From the NCBI RefSeq assembly GCF_057098645.1, contig NZ_CM169472.1: a DNA stretch of 64,000 nucleotides; one strand, 5' to 3'. The position numbers were made by a program, and so were the translations under genes. Shown here piece after piece: positions 1 to 17,260 of this stretch (within the stretch, counting starts at the first letter, position 1; each line of letters starts with the position of its first letter). The notes beneath the pieces are model-generated. The model was given only the letters and a program-made list of their open reading frames with translations, searched no databases and was not told the DNA's origin.

Positions 1-883
1 CGTTGGAGGTGGTCATGTCGATGCCTTCAGCATTACCCAGGGCTTCAGTCAGGGTCATGCCGCTAAAGTCCATTTTCAGGGTGCTCTGTTTCTTCACTTC
101 ACCCATCACAAATACTTTCAGATCATCATTACGCGGCACGTAGAGAATATCGCCGGGATAAAGCAGTCGGTTCTGATTGAGGTCGCCGTTTTGCATCAGC
201 GCCTGCAAAGAAATGCGTTCTTCACGACCATTGTGTGTTAGCACCACGTTGCGCCAGTCAGCGGTGTCGGTCAGGCCACCTGCGGCGTTGATGGCGTCGA
301 GAATAGTCAGTGGTACGTTGGTGATCGCCTGTTGACCGGATTTATTCACCTGACCTGAGATATAGGCCTTTTGTGAGCGGAAGGCGGCGATATTAACGTC
401 CACCTGCGGGTCAGCGATGTACGTCGCTAAGCGCCCGGTAATATCACTGCGGATTTCAGCGAGCGTTTTCCCGACTACGTGAACCTTGCCGATATACGGG
501 TAGAACATGGTGCCGTCAGGCTGTACCCAGTTGCCGGTGTCACTGGAGCTGCGGTACTGACCGGCTGGCGTGGTGAGTTCCGGGTGATCCCAGACGGTGA
601 CATTAAGAACGTCCCCCGGCCCGACGCGATACTGGTAATTCGCGATCTCGCTTTCCAGCGTCATATTGGGGCGCGCTACGTTGGGTCGTGGACGTAATTG
701 GTCAATCAGGCGCGGGGTCAACGGATAAACATTCACCATTTTGTCGAGATCGAAATCAGCGTCCTGCTGTTTGATGACGTCTTTGCCCATCGTCGACATA
801 TTGCTGCCCGGAAGTACTGTGCAACCGCTTATCAAGGTTACTGACACCAATAATGGCATCAATTTCATTTTGGATTTCATCAT
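1..883 (-). CDS. wza: Outer-membrane polysaccharide export lipoprotein Wza, N-terminal part (gene runs off the window start)
   Basis: Minus-strand translation from ATG at 881-883 gives [17 protein letters not shown](I)SGCT... with a lipobox Cys, matching Wza; the reading frame continues to position 1. Confidence 0.85.
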
Positions 884-1061
884 TGTTTATTTATCACTTT
901 GGCAGAGTAATTATCCTGTGCACTATTAATAGCAATGTCGCCATGCACATTTACCTTGCAGTTAATTGAATACAAATTTAACTGGCATCAGTCCTAAAAA
1001 AATTGATTTCATCCGCAGGCTATTGACAGAATAATTCAGACTGGTCTTTCAGGCATCCAGA

Positions 1062-1073
1062 CACGCTACCGCC
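1062..1073 (-). promoter_or_regulatory. ops element (GGCGGTAGCGTG) in the wza leader, RfaH recruitment site within a JUMPstart region
   Basis: Minus-strand sequence reads GGCGGTAGCGTG about 180 nt upstream of the wza start; matches the ops consensus GGCGGTAGnnTG. Confidence 0.6.
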
Positions 1074-1541
1074 CCTGGCTTTTTAGCTACCAATACACTG
1101 ATTTAGCTTAATTTTTCAAACCCTCTCTGCATACAATCGTTGATGAGAAAGGGTTATTGCGGAAATTAACTTCCGAATATAAGGTGACATTATGGTAATT
1201 GAATATTGGCTCTCCAATAATGCAGGAGGAAGTGTTACAGCTAACGGAATAGCAGGCAAGGTAACAATTCGGCAATTGGCTATTTTTAAGAATTATATTA
1301 AGTGTCATTCAATATGGTTTTTAGGAGTTTCTTTAGGTTGACAATATTTAATATTGCGTCTCCACATGCGATATTTCTTAAATAATGTTTTATTATTACC
1401 ACTTTTAATTCAGGGATAATGTGAGGTTATTACCCTCAAATAATATGAGATAAATAGTGCTGCAACATTGCATTTTTGCCCCGATTTATCCATGATCGAA
1501 TTGTGACATTTGTCATACAACGAATAGGTTTTGTACTTACT

Positions 1542-3125
1542 ATGGAATGGATTGCCGATCCGTCTATCTGGGCCGGGTTAATCACGCTGATTGTGATCGA
1601 ACTGGTCCTCGGCATTGATAACCTGGTCTTTATTGCCATCCTCGCCGAAAAACTACCGCCGAAGCAGCGCGACCGCGCACGGGTTACCGGGCTGCTGCTG
1701 GCGATGTTAATGCGCCTGTTACTGCTGGCGTCAATCTCCTGGCTGGTCACCCTGACTCAACCGCTGTTCAGCTTCCGCTCGTTTACCTTTAGCGCCCGCG
1801 ACTTAATCATGCTGTTTGGTGGTTTCTTCCTGTTGTTCAAAGCCACGATGGAGCTGAACGAACGGCTGGAAGGGAAAGACAGCAATAATCCCACACAACG
1901 CAAAGGTGCGAAGTTCTGGGGCGTGGTGACGCAAATTGTGGTACTGGACGCCATTTTCTCACTCGACTCAGTGATTACCGCCGTCGGGATGGTCGACCAT
2001 TTACTGGTCATGATGGCCGCCGTGGTTATCGCTATCAGCCTGATGTTGATGGCCAGCAAGCCGTTAACGCAATTTGTTAACAGTCACCCGACGATCGTTA
2101 TTCTCTGCTTAAGCTTCCTGTTGATGATTGGCTTTAGCCTGGTGGCAGAAGGTTTCGGCTTCGTCATTCCGAAAGGCTACCTGTACGCTGCCATTGGTTT
2201 CTCGGTGATGATCGAGGCGCTCAATCAGTTGGCTATCTTTAACCGGCGACGTTTTCTTTCCGCTAACCAGACGCTGCGCCAGCGGACTACCGAAGCGGTA
2301 ATGCGCCTGCTTAGCGGGCAAAAAGAAGATGCGGAACTGGACGCCGAAACCGCGTCCATGCTGGTGGATCATGGTAACCAGCAGATCTTTAATCCGCAGG
2401 AACGGCGGATGATTGAGCGGGTACTAAATCTTAACCAGCGTACCGTCAGCAGCATTATGACGTCGCGCCACGATATTGAGCATATCGATCTCAACGCGCC
2501 GGAAGACGAGATCCGCCAGTTGCTGGAGCGAAATCAGCATACGCGGCTGGTGGTTACCGACGGTGATGACGCAGAAGATTTGCTCGGTGTTGTTCACGTT
2601 ATCGACCTGCTACAACAGTCTCTGCGCGGCGAACCGCTCAACCTGCGGGTGTTGATTCGCCAGCCGCTGGTGTTCCCGGAAACCTTGCCGTTGTTACCTG
2701 CCCTGGAGCAGTTCCGTAATGCCCGCACGCACTTTGCTTTTGTGGTGGATGAGTTTGGCTCGGTGGAAGGGATTGTGACATTAAGTGACGTCACTGAAAC
2801 CATTGCCGGTAACTTACCGAACGAAGTGGAAGAGATCGACGCCCGCCATGATATTCAGAAGAATGCGGACGGTTCCTGGACGGCGAATGGTCATATGCCG
2901 CTGGAGGATCTGGTGCAATATGTGCCGCTGCCGCTGGATGAAAAACGTGAATATCACACCATTGCCGGGCTGTTGATGGAGTATTTGCAGCGTATTCCAA
3001 AACCTGGCGAAGAAGTTCAGGTGGGGGATTATTTGCTTAAAACGTTGCAGGTAGAAAGCCATCGCGTGCAGAAGGTGCAGATTATACCGCTGCGTAAGGA
3101 TGGCGAGATGGAGTACGAGGTGTGA
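1542..3125 (+). CDS. yegH: Inner-membrane TerC-family protein with C-terminal CBS pair and CorC/HlyC transporter-associated domain
   Basis: ORF 1476..3125; likely true start at MEWIADPS (1542). N-terminal multi-TM region with the GIDNLVF TerC-type motif, then CBS-like and CorC-like C-terminus. Confidence 0.85.
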
Positions 3126-3360
3126 TGGTATCGGTCATTTTACCCGATGCTGCGTAACGCCTTATAACTTCAGCAATGAAGCGTTGTCTGTGGTACATGG
3201 ACATCACAGCGGGGGTGTGGGCCCGGGTTGCCAGGGTGGTGGCGATTGAGCCACCCTGGCACGTTCACCGGCTTGAGCGTTCCATAGTAACGAGGAACAT
3301 CAAGTGAACGGAACAGCCTTCGATCTTACATATTCAGAATATAATGATGCCGCCACGAAC

Positions 3361-3400
3361 GCCTGATGCGACGCTTTACGCGTCTTATCAGGCCTACAGG
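3361..3400. repeat. REP (repetitive extragenic palindromic) element
   Basis: gcctgatgcgacgctttacgcgtcttatcaggcctac, the canonical E. coli REP palindrome, in the yegH-asmA intergenic region. Confidence 0.6.
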
Positions 3401-3417
3401 ACTGGTCACCTAGTAAC

Positions 3418-5271
3418 CTACATCTTCTCAAGCAACTTCTTCACATCTTTGCCATTACGGGAATCTTTATTCCGCTCGGCCCAGTCATTCAGGCGACGTT
3501 TCGCTTCGTCCTGTAGATGTTTGCGCAGTAACTGATCCACTTGCAGGCTGTAATTGAGTTGCTGCCAGTTGCCATAAACCCGCAGCGGTACTGGCGTTTC
3601 TTTCAGGAAATCAATCAGTTTGCTTTCCCCGTTCCAGCCACCCACGACCCGAATATCAAACTGGGTGTCGCAGGTTTGATCTGCCAGATTCAACATGCCT
3701 TCCCCTGTCAGCGCCAGCACAGGCGATTGACCTTGCATGTCGTTTAACGTCACGACGCCATCCTTCAACGTCAAATCGGTGGTAAAGCGGTCAAGCCGCG
3801 TCACGTTATCAAAGTTTTCAGCGGCCTTCACATCACCGCCATTACGCTCTACCGCTTGCTGAATCATCTGCTGGAAGTTCATCCCTTCCATGCGCGTGTC
3901 GGTCATTTCGACATGTGCCTGTCCTTGCCAGTTGTGGCGGAATGCGTCGGCATCTATGTCAGCACCGGAGAAATCACCAGCCAGTGACATTTTTCCGGTC
4001 AACGAAATCGGATAGTTAAACGCCTTCAGAATGGTACCAATCTCAACGTTTTCCAGCCGTGGCTGGAAGTTTATCCGCGGATTTATTGATGTCGCGTCCA
4101 GCGTGCCCGGCAGTGAAACCTGTCCACCGTTAAGCTTGCCCTGCAGTTGAGTAATTTCCAGCAAACCCGACTTGTTGGTCATTTGCGTGGCAACATCTGT
4201 AAAATTCATTCCGCGCCAGCGCACGTTACTGACCTGCAACAAAATATCAGCCGTAAAGCCTTGCAGTCCCTGATAGGCCGGTTCATCAATACGCGAAGAA
4301 ATAACCGGGCGCGGCAACGTTGATTGGCTCTGCCCCTGCTGCGCGGCACCGTTTTCACCATTCGCTGTTTCATTAAGCGGGATGAGGTTGTCAAGATTCA
4401 GTTGCGGGAATTGCAGCCTCAGCTGCCATTCCGGTTTCTCTGTCAGCGTAACCTGTGCTTGCCCGCTCAGCGTACTGTCATTGGCGGTCAAGCTGATTTG
4501 GTTAAATGAAAGGCGTTTATGTGACTCCTGCCACTGGGCCTGGAAACTCCCCTGCCCCTGAATACCTTGTTTTGGTAAATCGGCACCCTGCAACTGCCAG
4601 TTAATTTGTTCAATAGCCGCCGTTAAATCATGCGGATAATCAGAAGCATCTACCGTACCGTTAAGGGATATCGTGAGATCGCGCTGATCGCGATTAACCC
4701 GCCCGGAAAACTCAAATGAGCCACGATGTTGGGGATCTTGTTCCATTTGCAGGCGGATATTGCGGATTGTCACCTGCTCGTCATCTTCATGCTGGAACAC
4801 CAGAACGCTGTCCGCCACCTTAAGACTGGATATATCAAACGACCATCCGCGATCGTCTGACAGATCCGGCAAGGTATTGTCGCGCGGTGCAACCGGAGCG
4901 TCTTCACTGCGCACCGCTTCCGTCTGCGGCGTCAGTTGGATCACTGCCCCTTTTAGCATCACCTGCTTAACGCTCAGTTGATGACTCAGTAGTGGTAAAA
5001 GCGCCACGTCCAGACGCATGTTGTCGGCGCGAACCAGTGGCTGGCTTGCGCCCTGGGCGGTGAGAGACATTCGCCCGGAGAGGATACTAAGCTGCGGCCA
5101 GACGTGCCAACGCAGTGGCCCGTCGAGCTGCAATTGATAACCGCTACGTGCAGCAACTTGCTTGACCATATAGTCGCGGAAATCATTCGGATTCACCAGC
5201 AACACTAACGCAGATAACCCGGCCACCAGCACGACCAGGAGTATCATCAGCGTCGTCAGAAATCGTCTCAT
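3418..5271 (-). CDS. asmA: AsmA, outer-membrane assembly protein (AsmA family)
   Basis: 617-aa ORF with N-terminal signal anchor (MRRFLTTLMILLVVLVAGLSALVLL), Gln-rich middle region, overall AsmA-like. Confidence 0.9.
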   Translation of the reverse strand: MRRFLTTLMILLVVLVAGLSALVLLVNPNDFRDYMVKQVAARSGYQLQLDGPLRWHVWPQLSILSGRMSLTAQGASQPLVRADNMRLDVALLPLLSHQLSVKQVMLKGAVIQLTPQTEAVRSEDAPVAPRDNTLPDLSDDRGWSFDISSLKVADSVLVFQHEDDEQVTIRNIRLQMEQDPQHRGSFEFSGRVNRDQRDLTISLNGTVDASDYPHDLTAAIEQINWQLQGADLPKQGIQGQGSFQAQWQESHKRLSFNQISLTANDSTLSGQAQVTLTEKPEWQLRLQFPQLNLDNLIPLNETANGENGAAQQGQSQSTLPRPVISSRIDEPAYQGLQGFTADILLQVSNVRWRGMNFTDVATQMTNKSGLLEITQLQGKLNGGQVSLPGTLDATSINPRINFQPRLENVEIGTILKAFNYPISLTGKMSLAGDFSGADIDADAFRHNWQGQAHVEMTDTRMEGMNFQQMIQQAVERNGGDVKAAENFDNVTRLDRFTTDLTLKDGVVTLNDMQGQSPVLALTGEGMLNLADQTCDTQFDIRVVGGWNGESKLIDFLKETPVPLRVYGNWQQLNYSLQVDQLLRKHLQDEAKRRLNDWAERNKDSRNGKDVKKLLEKM

Positions 5272-12689: not shown

Positions 12690-14639
12690 TCAGCAGCGGC
12701 TTAAATCTGCCTGCGCCTGAGCCAGTTTTTCTGCTGCCTGACGTAACGGTTCCATCAACGGCATGGTCCGTGCTGGAGCATGAAGGCGGAATCGCTGCAA
12801 CTCTGTCGCGCCGACTGTCAACGCCGATTCCAGCCGATGTCGTTTGGCGGTCATTTTCGCCATTACCGCTTGTCTGTCTGCTGGCGTTATCGCTTCATTC
12901 GGCCTGAACACAAAACGGCGTTCACAGCTCGCTTTCCAGTCGATAACCGCCTGGGTCAGATGGTCGCCAAACCCTTTCACTTGCTTAACGCCACGACGGG
13001 TAACATCTGCGGCTGTTTCAATACCAAAAGACCGTAACGCCGCTTTACGCGCAGGGCCAACGCCGGGAATAGAGGCAACATCAATAAAAAATCCCTCCAG
13101 AAACTTCTGCTTCTGCCGTTCCCTTGCAGTGTCATGAAGTGCTGCCAGAGCGCGTTTCTCTTCTTCCGGTAACCCGAGAATTTCGTCCTTCATTTTTTCG
13201 AGCATCGTCCGTTTGGCGATAAAACCTTCCAGGCCGCCTACCTGCTGGATCTGGCGGACTAAATGGTCATAGTCCATTTTCGCACGATTAAATGCCTCAC
13301 GGCGTTGCTGAACTTCTGCTTTGTACGCTTTGCTTGTCAGACTGCCAATAATCCAGATAGCCGCCAGCACAGGAACCAAAATAATATAACGCGGTTCTGC
13401 CTGAAGGCCGCAAAGCAGCAGCGATAATGCTGACAGTGCGATCTCAAGCAGAATGATGTATTCGCGCCGTAACAGGCCTAAAGGAAGCGGCCTGCCAGTC
13501 GGTTGGAAATGATCGGGTAATGGCAGTTGCAATGCTGGCGGTGCTACTGACGCCATCACCATCGCCCAGACTTTCGCCAGCACAAAATTCCCGCCGGTGG
13601 TAATGACCTCTTCGCCGAGATCAATAAAATAGATAACGCCTTGATTATCCAGCGTACACCACGGGCAGTCGGTCAAATGAGCGGGATAAACATGCATTGC
13701 CGAAACGGTACATTTCTTTAACTGTTGGCGTAGAGAATCCAGTGCTGCTACCCACGCTTTAGCCGTCGGACGCCCGGTTGCTACACCACTTTCCGTAAAC
13801 GCCTGCTGAAACATGGCTTCAACATCGCCCGGTAACATCGACAGCGGAATCGATCGTGGCGGCGGTTTTAAACCACGTCGCTGATTATCTGACGCGTAGG
13901 CATAACGGAAATGGGCAATATCCGTCTCCAGCGCATTACCCGCATCAGAGATAAGCGGCACACCAGAATAAGGATGCCGCCCACCAAACAAGACGTGAAA
14001 AATAAGCAACGCAAGGCCAAAATTATCGTGATTCGCGGTACGTTCAAAACCGACAAATGATGGCAAGGTTTGTAGCTCTGGCGGCGTAAAATGCGACACG
14101 CCGACTTCGCATAAATGCAGTGTGCCATTGGCGTTAATCTGAAAGGAGTCACTATCGATCAACACCACTTTGCTGTCGCGACCTACCATAAAGCTGTTCT
14201 GGTTTACGTCCCCCACGACGTGCCCGTGCTCGTGAACCGTAGCAAAAGATGAAGCAATATTGCGCGCAACATAGAGTAGAAAATCCCACGCACAATGAGG
14301 GTAACTCTGGCGACGATGTGCCGGGCTATAGATCATATGAATCGGTTCTTTACCAGAAACTTTTGGCATCATAAAACCGATAACTTTTCCGCCTCGCCCA
14401 CCGTGAAGCGTTGCCTGCGGCCAGGCGACATAATTCAACAACTGCGCGTCAGCTGTCGCAGCCATAAAGGCAAGTTTGTCCTGTTTTAAGGCGGGTGGCG
14501 GCGTGTGATAAATCTTGGCGACGCTATCGGCAAACTCCTCGATATCATAAACCGCACCTTCACCGCCTTTGCCCAGTTCACGGCCTGGCGTAACGCACTC
14601 ACCAGTAGCAGTATATAAAGTGGGTTTCATGGTAACCAC
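12690..14639 (-). CDS. yegI: Atypical membrane Ser/Thr protein kinase-like protein (N-terminal kinase-like domain, central TM segments, C-terminal helix-hairpin-helix-like region)
   Basis: 649-aa ORF; glycine-rich loop GKGGEGAVYD, lysine in VAKIY, catalytic-loop-like HVVGDVNQN, DFG-like IDSDSF, hydrophobic TM stretch (YIILLEIALSALSLLLCGL...VPVLAAIWIIGSL). Confidence 0.8.
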   Translation of the reverse strand: MVTMKPTLYTATGECVTPGRELGKGGEGAVYDIEEFADSVAKIYHTPPPALKQDKLAFMAATADAQLLNYVAWPQATLHGGRGGKVIGFMMPKVSGKEPIHMIYSPAHRRQSYPHCAWDFLLYVARNIASSFATVHEHGHVVGDVNQNSFMVGRDSKVVLIDSDSFQINANGTLHLCEVGVSHFTPPELQTLPSFVGFERTANHDNFGLALLIFHVLFGGRHPYSGVPLISDAGNALETDIAHFRYAYASDNQRRGLKPPPRSIPLSMLPGDVEAMFQQAFTESGVATGRPTAKAWVAALDSLRQQLKKCTVSAMHVYPAHLTDCPWCTLDNQGVIYFIDLGEEVITTGGNFVLAKVWAMVMASVAPPALQLPLPDHFQPTGRPLPLGLLRREYIILLEIALSALSLLLCGLQAEPRYIILVPVLAAIWIIGSLTSKAYKAEVQQRREAFNRAKMDYDHLVRQIQQVGGLEGFIAKRTMLEKMKDEILGLPEEEKRALAALHDTARERQKQKFLEGFFIDVASIPGVGPARKAALRSFGIETAADVTRRGVKQVKGFGDHLTQAVIDWKASCERRFVFRPNEAITPADRQAVMAKMTAKRHRLESALTVGATELQRFRLHAPARTMPLMEPLRQAAEKLAQAQADLSRC

Positions 14640-15388
14640 AGCGCCAGTGCCAACGTTTTATCATCATCGGTACGCTCGTTTACCGCCGGGCTCGACAAAA
14701 ACTGCTTTAACAATTCAGGTAATAAATCGAGTTGTTCCTGCGTTGCTGCCGCCAGTCCATTGAAAAACGGGGTAAAGAAAGGCACATGCGGAGAATTATC
14801 CAGCATATTTAACGCCAGTCGCTGAATACCATCCGTAAATGCTGCAACTTTATGCGCACGCTCAGTGCTGGTGAAAGTTTCCAGTCTGGAAACAGCATCT
14901 TCATCGCTAATGAAATGCGTCATATTGGCATATTCACCCACCATCGGCGTGAGCAGCAGTTCCAGACCACGACCAAAATCCACCACTACACCGCCGTCGC
15001 CAATTTGCATAATCAATGTGCCGTTAGCCGATGAAATCAATCCCAGAAACGTGCAGGCAAAATCGCGAACTGCTAATGCTTTGGCTTCTGCCTCGGCAAA
15101 AAGTCGTTGACGAATGGTCAGTACCATATTTGTGGCGAGGACATCATTAAGCCCCAATTCACCGTCCTGTACTTTTTGCACCATAAACGCCATCGCTTCA
15201 TTGACGGCGAGCTTCGCGCCTTCTCCTCCCTGCGAAACGCTACCTGCGCCATCAGCAAGGAACATCACCAGTAATGGCTGCTGGTCATTTAGCCAGGCAA
15301 CCTGCATCTGGCAGGCATCCTGACAAGGTAAATCAGCGCTAATGTGCGACGTTCCAACAGCGGATGCATAAACCAGACGCCAGCTCAC
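14627..15388 (-). CDS. pphC: PP2C-family Ser/Thr protein phosphatase
   Basis: 253-aa ORF with PP2C-type acidic metal-binding motifs ([12 protein letters not shown]); start overlaps yegL stop (ATGA) and its 3' end overlaps the yegI start by 13 nt. Confidence 0.8.
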
Positions 15389-16044
15389 ACTGACGTCCAG
15401 CCTTTTGGCGCTTCCAGCACAACTTCCGTTCCCGGCGTGGAGCGGGAAACCGAACGCAGTGAACTGGATAACCAGCTAAACAGTTCGCGGAATTGTAATC
15501 CCTGCAGAGACAAAGGCTGACGGACGCTGATTTGGGCCAGCGTCTTCATATCCGCCCCCTGAACACCGATGGAAAAGAAGGCAAACTTCTTATCTTCTTC
15601 CCCCTGAAACACTTTGTTGGCGGCAGCCTGCCACTCATCGGTTGGAGCGCCATCGGTGATCAGGAAAATCCACGGGCGATAATACGAAATACCATTTGCA
15701 CGATACTCACGTTTCCGCTCCTCTACCATATCCAGGGCTTTGGTAATGGCGGCACCCATTGGTGTATCGCCCTGGGCAAACAGAATGGGCGGGAAAAAAT
15801 TAGCGGCGCTGGTAAAGGGTTGTTCCACATGCACCGGGCCGAACGTCACAATACCAAGTTCCACTCTTTTTAAGGCCAGCGGGTCGGCAAGCAGCTCATC
15901 GCGAAAGGTAACCAATCCGGCGTTAAGTTCATTAATGGGTCTACCGTTCATCGAACCAGAAACATCCAGCAGCAAAATGCAGGGGCAACGTGGTTCCGGG
16001 TTACTGGCAAAATCGCTGGTGGCAAACGTGATTTGTTCGCTCAT
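15385..16044 (-). CDS. yegL: von Willebrand factor A (vWA) domain protein, TerY-like
   Basis: 219-aa ORF with MIDAS motif DVSGSM (DxSxS) and downstream TDG, the vWA signature. Confidence 0.8.
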
Positions 16045-16227
16045 AAGAAATCCTTTCTTAGAGAATTATTGAGGTCCGGTATCATACCGATTGCAATAAT
16101 GAAATAAGAGCAAACGAAGAAACTTTCAGAATTAGGCCCGGCGGCGCAGAAAATTTTGCTATTCGCCTCGCAAGAACGGAGAGCCGTCGATTGACACTAA
16201 GGGCGGAGTGACATAATTACAGGAGTG

Positions 16228-16375
16228 AGGGTTAGGGAGAAGTTTCCCCCTCCCCCTGGTGTTCTTAGTAAGCCTGGAAGCTAATCACTAAGAGTATCAC
16301 CAGTATGATGACGTGCTTCATCATAACCCTTTCCTTATTTAAAAGCCCTCTTCTCCGGGAGAGGGTTCCCCGTTT
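16228..16375 (+). ncRNA. sibA: Sib antitoxin sRNA, copy 1 (boundaries approximate)
   Basis: Starts just downstream of TTGACA...TAATTA; fully antisense to ibs ORF 1; ends at hairpin ccctcttctccgggagaggg plus T-run. Confidence 0.55.
16265..16324 (-). CDS. ibsA: Ibs-type hydrophobic toxin peptide, copy 1 (MMKHVIILVILLVISFQAY)
   Basis: 19-codon ORF with tandem ATG start and strongly hydrophobic sequence typical of Ibs toxins. Confidence 0.6.
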   Translation of the reverse strand: MMKHVIILVILLVISFQAY

Positions 16376-16556
16376 TAGCGTCCCGCTGAAATCGTCGGCT
16401 TACCTCCTTTCGCCCTGAATGCAGTCTATCGCTGACTTGCGGATAAAATAGTTTCAAGTGTGATTATTGCGTAACGACTCGCAAAGAATATTTGCTGGCA
16501 GGATCGCAGACTGCAAAGCCTGCAGATTGACAATCTTATCGTGAAGGCATACTTTC

Positions 16557-16703
16557 AGGAGTGAGGGTAGAGCGGGGTTTCCCCCGCCCTGGTAGTCTTA
16601 GTAAGCGGGGAAGCTTATGACTAAGAGCACCACGATGATGAGTAGCTTCATCATGACCCTTTCCTTATTTAAGGCCCCTTCCTCGGGAGGGGCTTTCCCG
16701 TTT
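16557..16703 (+). ncRNA. sibB: Sib antitoxin sRNA, copy 2 (boundaries approximate)
   Basis: Promoter TTGACA-N17-TACTTT; antisense to ibs ORF 2; terminator hairpin plus T-run. Confidence 0.55.
16598..16654 (-). CDS. ibsB: Ibs-type toxin peptide, copy 2 (MMKLLIIVVLLVISFPAY)
   Basis: 18-codon hydrophobic ORF antisense to Sib copy 2. Confidence 0.6.
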   Translation of the reverse strand: MMKLLIIVVLLVISFPAY

Positions 16704-16884
16704 CAGCGTCCCGCTGAAATCTTCGGCTTACCTCCTTTCGCCCTGTATGCAGTCTATCGCTGACTTGCGGATAAAATAGTTTCAAGTGTGATTATTGCGT
16801 AACGACTCGCAAAGAATATTTGCTGGCAGGATCGCAGACTGCAAAGCCTGCAGATTGACAATCTTATCGTGAAGGCATACTTTC

Positions 16885-17031
16885 AGGAGTGAGGGTAGAG
16901 CGGGGTTTCCCCCGCCCTGGTAGTCTTAGTATGCTGGGTAGCTAATCACTAAGAGCACCACGATGATGAGTATCTTCATCATGACCCTTTCCTTATTTAT
17001 GGCCCCTTCCTCGGGAGGGGCTTTCCCGTTT
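16885..17031 (+). ncRNA. Sib antitoxin sRNA, copy 3 (boundaries approximate)
   Basis: Third repeat of the promoter/sRNA/terminator block. Confidence 0.5.
16926..16982 (-). CDS. Ibs-type toxin peptide, copy 3 (MMKILIIVVLLVISYPAY)
   Basis: 18-codon hydrophobic ORF in the third repeat; two residue differences from copy 2. Confidence 0.55.
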   Translation of the reverse strand: MMKILIIVVLLVISYPAY

Positions 17032-17189
17032 CAGCGTCCCGCTGAAATCGTCGGCTTACCTCCTTTCGCCATGCAAGCAGTCTATCGCTAACGCGTAGAT
17101 AAAATAGTTTCCTGTGTTATTACTGGATGCGTGCTCGCAAATGTGCCCGCCATTCAGACGATTCCCGATAGTGTTTCATAATTCCTCCA

Positions 17190-17207
17190 TTTTTCTCCCT
17201 TATTGGC
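17190..17207 (+). promoter_or_regulatory. BaeR response-regulator binding box upstream of mdtA
   Basis: TTTTTCTCCCTTATTGGC, about 55 nt upstream of the mdtA start; closely matches the published BaeR box as I recall it (TTTTTCTCCATDATTGGC). Confidence 0.5.
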
Positions 17208-17260
17208 TGGCTACACTAGTATCATTCCGCGAAACGTTTCAGGAAGAGAAACTCTTAACG

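Follow-up and report, generated by a model that had tools for sequence, protein, structure and literature searches.

Proteins of the TerC family are described as having seven transmembrane segments (PMC10550928), and YegH is one of three E. coli members considered here, together with Alx and YoaE. Alx is a Mn2+ exporter in which D-to-N or E-to-Q substitutions at E86, D92, D216 and D222 abolish export (PMC10197570), and in Bacillus subtilis MeeF and MeeY load metal onto exported enzymes as these are secreted (PMC10550928); all three share with YegH the Pfam TerC domain. YoaE (E. coli b1816; MgpA in Salmonella) is a paralogue of YegH with the same architecture of a TerC domain, a CBS pair and a CorC_HlyC domain, and MgpA together with CorC protects Salmonella from excess Mg2+ (PMC12421838). 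CorC, CorB, the CNNM proteins and PaeA have a cytosolic module of a CBS pair and CorC_HlyC that matches YegH by sequence and fold, but the membrane domain of CNNM, CorB and PaeA is of the CNNM/DUF21 type (PF01595) and that of YegH is of the TerC type (PF03741). YegH is among the six CorC-domain proteins listed for Salmonella.

TerC proteins are also encoded in classical ter loci, where the first-pass annotation of the DNA described here noted that they are associated with TerY-P modules. The IncHI2 plasmid pUR-EC3.2 illustrates this well, with terZABCDEF and a terW-terY1-terX-terY2-terY3-PP2C-kinase group about 12 kb from terC. In our sequence yegH lies near the genes yegI, pphC and yegL, and a functional link between the two loci had been put forward as speculation. 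We do not favour such a link. We are fairly confident that YegH works on its own as a TerC-type transporter of divalent cations, one whose gate responds to nucleotide or Mg2+ and which has no functional tie to the triad, and that the two loci are neighbours through a recent insertion of the triad in Escherichia and not through shared function.

The window (the whole 64,000 bp stretch analysed, from contig NZ_CM169472.1) carries yegH near its left end (Table 1). The gene and the kind of protein it encodes are already known: it is annotated and belongs to the E. coli core, and 5419 of the 5426 complete genomes of the species have it at full length. Positions 1000-3500 are 100% identical in DNA sequence to the E. 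coli O145:H28 chromosome, and the predicted product (527 aa, followed by a stop codon) is identical to the RefSeq 'TerC family protein' WP_001296218 of E. coli O145 RM9872. Sequence comparison supports the ATG at 1542 as the start codon, because conservation begins at ATGGAATGG, which together with the downstream codons is kept in 14 other Enterobacterales loci, and because a frame extended to an upstream TTG is unconserved. The longer TTG-initiated open reading frame, beginning at 1476, was considered and rejected as a gene; its upstream portion has a non-coding pattern in the 15 Enterobacterales sequences compared.

Table 1. Features of the yegH region and of the comparator triad (window coordinates)
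Feature	Coordinates	Strand	Basis
Conserved block ATTGCAWTTT-N8/9-TTATCCATGATC, probable yegH core promoter	1465-1497	+	Conservation
PhoB site, Pho-box-like repeats; GTGACATTTGTCATACAA at 1503-1520	1491-1520	.	Sequence identical to published sites
yegH, TerC-CBS-CorC inner-membrane protein	1542-3125	+	ORF; RefSeq annotation at 100% identity
TerC transmembrane domain, aa 14-203	1581-2150	+	Pfam PF03741
CBS pair (Bateman module), approximately aa 300-425	2439-2816	+	Pfam, PDB matches, Foldseek
CorC_HlyC 'transporter-associated' domain, aa 440-516	2859-3089	+	Pfam PF03471
yegI-pphC-yegL cassette (comparator only, outside the yegH unit)	12690-16044	-	Annotation
yegI, kinase	12690-14630	-	Annotation
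pphC, PP2C phosphatase	14627-15388	-	Annotation; Pfam PP2C_2
yegL, vWA	15385-16044	-	Annotation; Pfam VWA

Pfam places TerC, CBS pair and CorC_HlyC domains in that order on the single YegH polypeptide, with the GIDNLVF motif at residues 24-30, which is the architecture that the first-pass annotation had read from the sequence. The TerC match is strong (E = 2.4e-49; 167.9 bits against a cut-off of 27.8) and covers profile positions 1-177 of 178, the CBS domains are matched in two stretches (E = 1e-14), and the CorC_HlyC domain has E = 4.6e-22; there is no Pfam match to PF01595 in YegH. A PDB sequence search gives matches including 4hg0 (E = 9.9e-28), 7cfh and 7m1t, with matches to CorC and CBS domains spanning residues 268-431 and matches of the CorC_HlyC domain to 2o3g, 2oai and 4hg0. 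An AF2 model of moderate confidence (mean pLDDT 74.5) has seven transmembrane helices (residues 7-35, 40-69, 85-109, 125-150, 154-181, 183-204 and 211-242) followed by a helical linker, the CBS pair and a beta-rich CorC domain, and this topology would place the CBS-CorC module on the cytoplasmic side. In the model YegH thus has the seven-helix core of a TerC protein, with conserved intramembrane acidic residues at a putative metal site. Foldseek matches the cytosolic part to CorC (4hg0), TpCorC (7cfh and 7cfi, an ATP complex), MtCorB (7m1t, with Mg2+-ATP) and the Bateman modules of CNNM2-4, and the TM-scores against isolated CBS-pair structures of CorC, CorB and CNNM are 0.75-0.90 when normalised to the target. 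By sequence and fold, the CBS pair and CorC_HlyC domain of YegH are of the Mg-ATP-binding type, and we regard nucleotide binding as a putative property of the protein. The TerC membrane domain has no solved match in the PDB sequence and Foldseek searches, and the top matches listed by Foldseek are all CBS modules.

The membrane domain can be compared with those of Alx and YoaE. An alignment of 33 full-length YegH family members, with identities down to 29%, identifies E20, D26 and N27 in the first transmembrane helix and D136 and D142 in the fourth as invariant. YoaE/MgpA (518 aa), the nearest relative of YegH that has been characterised, is 50% identical to it over 520 aligned residues and 74% identical over the TerC domain, and has the invariant acidic residues in common with YegH. 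Alx is more different, with 21% identity, two extra N-terminal helices (nine predicted in all) and no CBS-CorC module, but its E-x5-D and D-x5-D acidic pairs are conserved in YegH, where E20, D26, D136 and D142 align with Alx E86, D92, D216 and D222. Of the five acidic residues that Alx needs to export Mn2+, YegH therefore keeps four and has V133 in place of E213.

These comparisons suggest how YegH could act. Mn2+, Mg2+ or another divalent cation would cross the TerC domain by way of E20 and D26 in the first helix and D136 and D142 in the fourth, and the CBS pair would bind an adenine nucleotide or Mg2+-ATP and gate transport, as it does in CorC, CorB and CNNM. Transport would be outward, as we infer from Alx, MeeF and MeeY, and the paralogue MgpA. 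By analogy, YegH is probably an exporter and Mn2+ or Mg2+ is its most likely substrate. The earlier suggestion of a ligand-gated cation transporter is supported by the Pfam and NCBIfam matches, the Alx-type acidic residues and the fold match to CorC, CorB and CNNM. Defining the cation and gating ligand of YegH would close a real though modest gap in what is known of metal homeostasis in enterobacteria.

Genetic data are available for Salmonella, in which a ΔyegH mutant, alone or combined with ΔcorC, has no phenotype under the stress of Mg2+ starvation or excess; in excess Mg2+, ΔmgpA is synthetic with ΔcorC and ΔyegH is not (PMC12421838). Because ΔyegH lacks a Mg2+ phenotype, Mg2+ export is only a candidate activity of YegH, which could be redundant or have a different substrate. 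We are highly doubtful that YegH is an importer, or that its CBS-CorC module, like that of PaeA, controls the passage of polyamines or other non-metal cations. PaeA is the top NCBIfam match to the C-terminal half of YegH (E = 8.4e-47, far below the cut-off) and the same regulatory module is found fused to differing transporter domains with differing substrates (PMC12421838), but the PaeA match is limited to the common CBS-CorC region (residues 249-513), the membrane domain is of the TerC and not the CNNM/DUF21 type, and the conserved intramembrane Asp/Glu pairs match those that Alx needs to export Mn2+. The NCBIfam models for PaeA, GldE and CorC all match within residues 157-520 and all score far below their equivalog cut-offs (159.9 bits against 500 for PaeA and 106.4 against 379 for CorC), scores that set YegH outside these three families.

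A different role for a TerC-type transporter is that of a metalation factor, supplying enzymes of the periplasm or envelope with Mn2+ or a different cation in the manner of MeeF and MeeY; in YegH such a function might serve the neighbouring envelope pathways, namely colanic acid and capsule export (wza-wzb-wzc) and AsmA. The metalation of exported enzymes by TerC proteins during secretion in B. subtilis gives this proposal a precedent, yegH adjoins wza and asmA even where its homologue is only 72% identical, and the lack of a bulk Mg phenotype in ΔyegH would fit a low-flux role. A 2026 study also identified YegH as the inner-membrane factor that the class II microcin MccAB1 needs to kill both A. 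baumannii and E. coli (PMC13188072), a part for which the periplasm-facing surface of YegH is exposed enough. Nonetheless we consider a metalation role unlikely, if worth keeping in mind. The synteny with wza and asmA is confined to the Enterobacterales, and more distant YegH homologues have unrelated neighbours (cytochrome c biogenesis genes and gidA, copper resistance genes, or a Na/Ca exchanger); moreover, MeeF and MeeY lack a CBS-CorC module, and we found no envelope phenotype of ΔyegH in the publications consulted. The reading that YegH is a nucleotide- or Mg2+-gated TerC transporter supplying divalent metal to envelope or periplasmic processes, and not one for cytoplasmic detoxification, is one that we rate as decidedly improbable. 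If true, it would explain the fixed place of yegH between a polysaccharide-export locus and asmA in the Enterobacterales, as well as the missing bulk metal phenotypes and the exposure of YegH to MccAB1.

Returning to the stand-alone transporter that we prefer, the question is whether the nearby triad has any part in its function, and we compared the layout of the two loci with respect to strand and transcription units. The gene order is wza (-), yegH (+), asmA (-), dcd (-), udk (-), dgcE (+), alkA (-), yegD (+) and yegI-pphC-yegL (-). The six unrelated genes and the spacing of about 10 kb given in the first-pass annotation agree with this map; the intervening genes are in several orientations, and the yegH stop codon is separated by 9.6 kb from the nearer end of yegI and by 12.3 kb from yegL. 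yegH and the triad are on opposite strands. The triad genes overlap and are co-oriented, which is the TerY-P layout of vWA, PP2C and Ser/Thr kinase genes, and the kinase activity of YegI has been published (bioRxiv 10.1101/819920). We also note that yegH and its neighbour wza point away from each other, and yegH and asmA towards each other, in E. coli and also at the locus of the 72%-identical homologue.

It could be imagined that yegH and yegI-pphC-yegL constitute a dispersed ter-like stress system, in which the vWA/kinase/phosphatase switch senses metal and regulates the transporter, a scheme that has been proposed for classical ter loci. Both Pfam families do co-occur in classical ter islands such as that of pUR-EC3.2, YegL is TerY-like (about 29% identity to plasmid TerY proteins, with 2332 plasmid records matched), and both loci are core in E. 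coli, yegIKL being present in 5402 of the 5426 complete genomes. However, since yegH and yegIKL are both core genes, their co-presence within E. coli is uninformative. Classical ter-operon TerC, like YegH, matches PF03741 strongly, and the motifs E-x2-L-x2-DN and D-x2-F-x2-D are common to both, but the plasmid protein is 346 aa long with extra N-terminal helices and an inserted loop, lacks a CBS-CorC module, and is encoded in an operon with terZABDE near TerY genes; yegH has no Ter neighbours, and the gene context of a classical ter locus is replaced by wza and the asmA-to-yegD genes listed above. BLASTP finds no significant similarity between the YegH TerC domain and TerC of pUR-EC3.2 (E = 0.021), and the two are 23% identical when aligned. 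A tblastn search with the YegH TerC domain matches 265 plasmid records, and among the matches listed there are proteins of the YegH/YoaE/YgdQ type and no ter-operon terC. The YegH TerC domain thus belongs to a different subfamily from ter-operon TerC. Similarly, YegL has a VWA domain only whereas plasmid TerY3 has VWA and TerY_C domains by Pfam, PphC and YegI are weakly related to the plasmid PP2C and kinase (23-25% identity in partial alignments), and the C-terminus of YegI is a helix-hairpin-helix, which is not a classical kinase architecture. Given the non-significant BLASTP result, the missing TerY_C and the weak similarity of PphC and YegI, the resemblance of the yegH locus to a ter locus is at the level of Pfam families only.

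The conservation of gene order across species bears directly on the same proposal. We took yegD as anchor, since its place between yegH and the triad brings both within ±10 kb, and mapped eleven local proteins by tblastn onto 80 species loci. The block yegH-asmA-dcd-udk-(dgcE)-alkA-yegD-mdtA is conserved across the Enterobacteriaceae, including Citrobacter, Salmonella, Klebsiella, Raoultella, Kosakonia, Kluyvera, Enterobacter, Leclercia, Buttiauxella and others, in which YegH is 81-92% identical. The triad is present at three of the 80 loci, all of them Escherichia, and absent from the other 77, most of which have yegH in the conserved block. E. albertii is one of those lacking the triad; its YegH is 98% identical and mdtA begins about 620 bp after yegD. 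A direct yegD-mdtA junction, with a gap of roughly 0.2-1 kb, is also seen in Citrobacter, Salmonella and most other genera. Because of these direct junctions and the presence of the triad at only three loci, we interpret the triad as a lineage-specific insertion into an older block, and with the adjacent ibs/sib repeats it makes up an insertion of roughly 4.6 kb in the E. coli lineage and its closest clades.

The two loci also differ in how their proteins diverge. YegH identity declines smoothly with phylogeny, from 98% in E. albertii to 90-92% in Citrobacter and Salmonella, 84-86% in Klebsiella, about 82% in Buttiauxella and 72% in a distant homologue, and the asmA-dcd-udk flank is retained throughout this range; the Enterobacteriaceae have inherited yegH vertically, as a monocistronic gene of their core. 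In contrast, YegI is 90-98% identical within Escherichia and then drops abruptly to 63% in Klebsiella spallanzanii and K. aerogenes, with relatives of about 58-60% identity in the Betaproteobacteria Piscinibacter and Chromobacterium. The three genomes examined outside Escherichia (Klebsiella, Piscinibacter and Chromobacterium) have the same compact vWA-PP2C-kinase cassette order in varied surroundings: GmrSD, type I restriction-modification genes and SymE in K. spallanzanii; NYN, SLFN-like helicase, McrA-like, BrxR and JetB genes in Piscinibacter; and AbiH, KAP NTPase and Tn7-like transposition genes in Chromobacterium. There is no TerC-family gene within ±10 kb of any of these three cassettes, and in K. 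spallanzanii the triad and yegH are on different contigs. Conversely, no vWA, PP2C or kinase genes are found near distant YegH homologues of 72%, about 47%, about 45% and about 43% identity. yegI-pphC-yegL is a mobile, horizontally acquired three-gene cassette that in the Escherichia lineage lies between yegD and mdtA. PADLOC gives no match for PphC or YegL and only marginal kinase matches for YegI; since its models give no call of yegIKL as a catalogued defence system, the idea that the triad belongs to a defence island draws solely on the neighbourhoods of its relatives.

In the yegD-anchored loci and the three cassettes examined, the triad thus has no conserved association with TerC, and a dispersed ter-like system seems to us exceedingly improbable; direct control of YegH by a YegI/PphC phospho-switch in E. 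coli is likewise very unlikely. The first-pass annotation had named a lack of co-occurrence together with a lack of shared regulation as what would count against a link, and a lack of co-occurrence is what the yegD-anchored loci display at the locus level across species. With a triad restricted to Escherichia at those loci, relatives of the triad without TerC, and TerC domains that differ in subfamily, the speculated connection between yegH and yegIKL loses its footing. The presence of TerC and TerY-like Pfam families within 10 kb is no sign of a ter-like system here, and the practical value of this result is mostly negative, in that it removes a tempting but false case of guilt by association, false because the TerC domain comes from another subfamily and the triad arrived recently as a mobile insertion.

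The region upstream of yegH contains a conserved block (positions 1465-1497; Table 1) that is present in most of 15 aligned Enterobacterales sequences and is kept in Klebsiella and Raoultella despite an otherwise different upstream context, and this is probably the yegH core promoter. A generic promoter and terminator scan of positions 850-3450 gave nothing above shuffle expectation and did not call the block. The mgpA gene has an overlapping leader ORF, yoaL, but no equivalent conserved leader ORF is seen upstream of yegH in the 15 Enterobacterales sequences. The comparison of the upstream sequences brings out the repeats at 1491-1520 as well. Overlapping the right end of the block, they form a PhoB site centred 30.5 bp upstream of the yegH ATG, which has been mapped by ChIP-chip, EMSA and a reporter (PMC3465305), and a wza/yegH PhoB site has also been found by ChIP-seq (PMC10294691). 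An inverted repeat at 1503-1518 was considered as a CRP-like site and rejected, as the literature maps the PhoB site there. yegH RNA is essentially equal in the two conditions tabulated (2,257 and 2,498; PMC10294691), and published work reports PhoB binding upstream of yegH to be transcriptionally inert. The yybP-ykoY Mn riboswitch that controls alx, and also mntP, is absent from yegH, and an Rfam scan of the upstream region finds no family at threshold for yegH itself; in the 660 bp between wza and yegH Rfam reports a single element, the JUMPstart that belongs to the divergent wza transcript on the other strand.

The yegI-pphC-yegL triad (kinase, PP2C phosphatase and vWA protein) is part of an insertion between yegD and mdtA. 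Loci L002–L004, all Escherichia, carry the triad, and the E. albertii locus L005 lacks it. The inserted segment is roughly 4.6 kb and consists of the triad together with ibs/sib repeats; it occurs only in E. coli and the closest Escherichia clades. The SIB RNAs directly adjoin the triad insertion and lie opposite ibs toxin genes, with four Ibs-family toxin ORFs in the RefSeq record of this interval. Homologous cassettes (58–63% identity) are present in Klebsiella, Piscinibacter and Chromobacterium (L084, L086 and L087), where they are surrounded by restriction, Abi, BrxR and Tn7-like genes, and this setting suggests that the triad is a mobile, possibly defence-related module. PADLOC does not recognise yegI-pphC-yegL.

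Features of the yegH and triad regions (window coordinates)
Feature	Position	Strand	Basis or remark
JUMPstart element in the wza (colanic acid) operon 5' leader	1062-1100	-	Rfam RF01707, 57.3 bits
49-aa 'hypothetical protein'	1193-1342	+	RefSeq annotation
7-mer repeats, inverted and direct (CATGATC, TGTGACA, TGTCATA)	1491-1520		11-bp register
Triad and downstream ibs/sib toxin-antitoxin repeats	12690-17260		Inserted between yegD and mdtA
Three tandem SIB antitoxin RNAs	16191-16997	+	RF00113, 141-145 bits

The 7-mer repeats directly upstream of the yegH ATG match published PhoB ChIP sites. They are kept in Escherichia, Citrobacter, Salmonella, Lelliottia and Buttiauxella, and among the genera compared are not conserved in Klebsiella, Raoultella and Yokenella. 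Further upstream, the 49-aa ORF overlaps a stretch conserved at the nucleotide level, from about 1221 to 1347, which is present wherever the divergent neighbour is wza. This stretch probably represents the promoter region of cps/wza and includes a sequence resembling an RcsAB box; the ORF is therefore likely not a real gene.

In an Oxalobacter-like genome (locus L092, 8933-13180) a Na_Ca_ex (CaCA) transporter gene is followed by two tandem TerC-CBS-CorC paralogs, a gene order that is a weak hint that the family works in cation homeostasis. Two PLSDB records labelled as E. coli plasmids, NZ_OL790696.1 (H31, 4.8 Mb) and NZ_CP146689.1 (H56, 66.8 kb), contain yegH or yegL-pphC sequence 100% identical to the chromosomal genes; they appear to be chromosomes, or pieces of one, under a wrong label.
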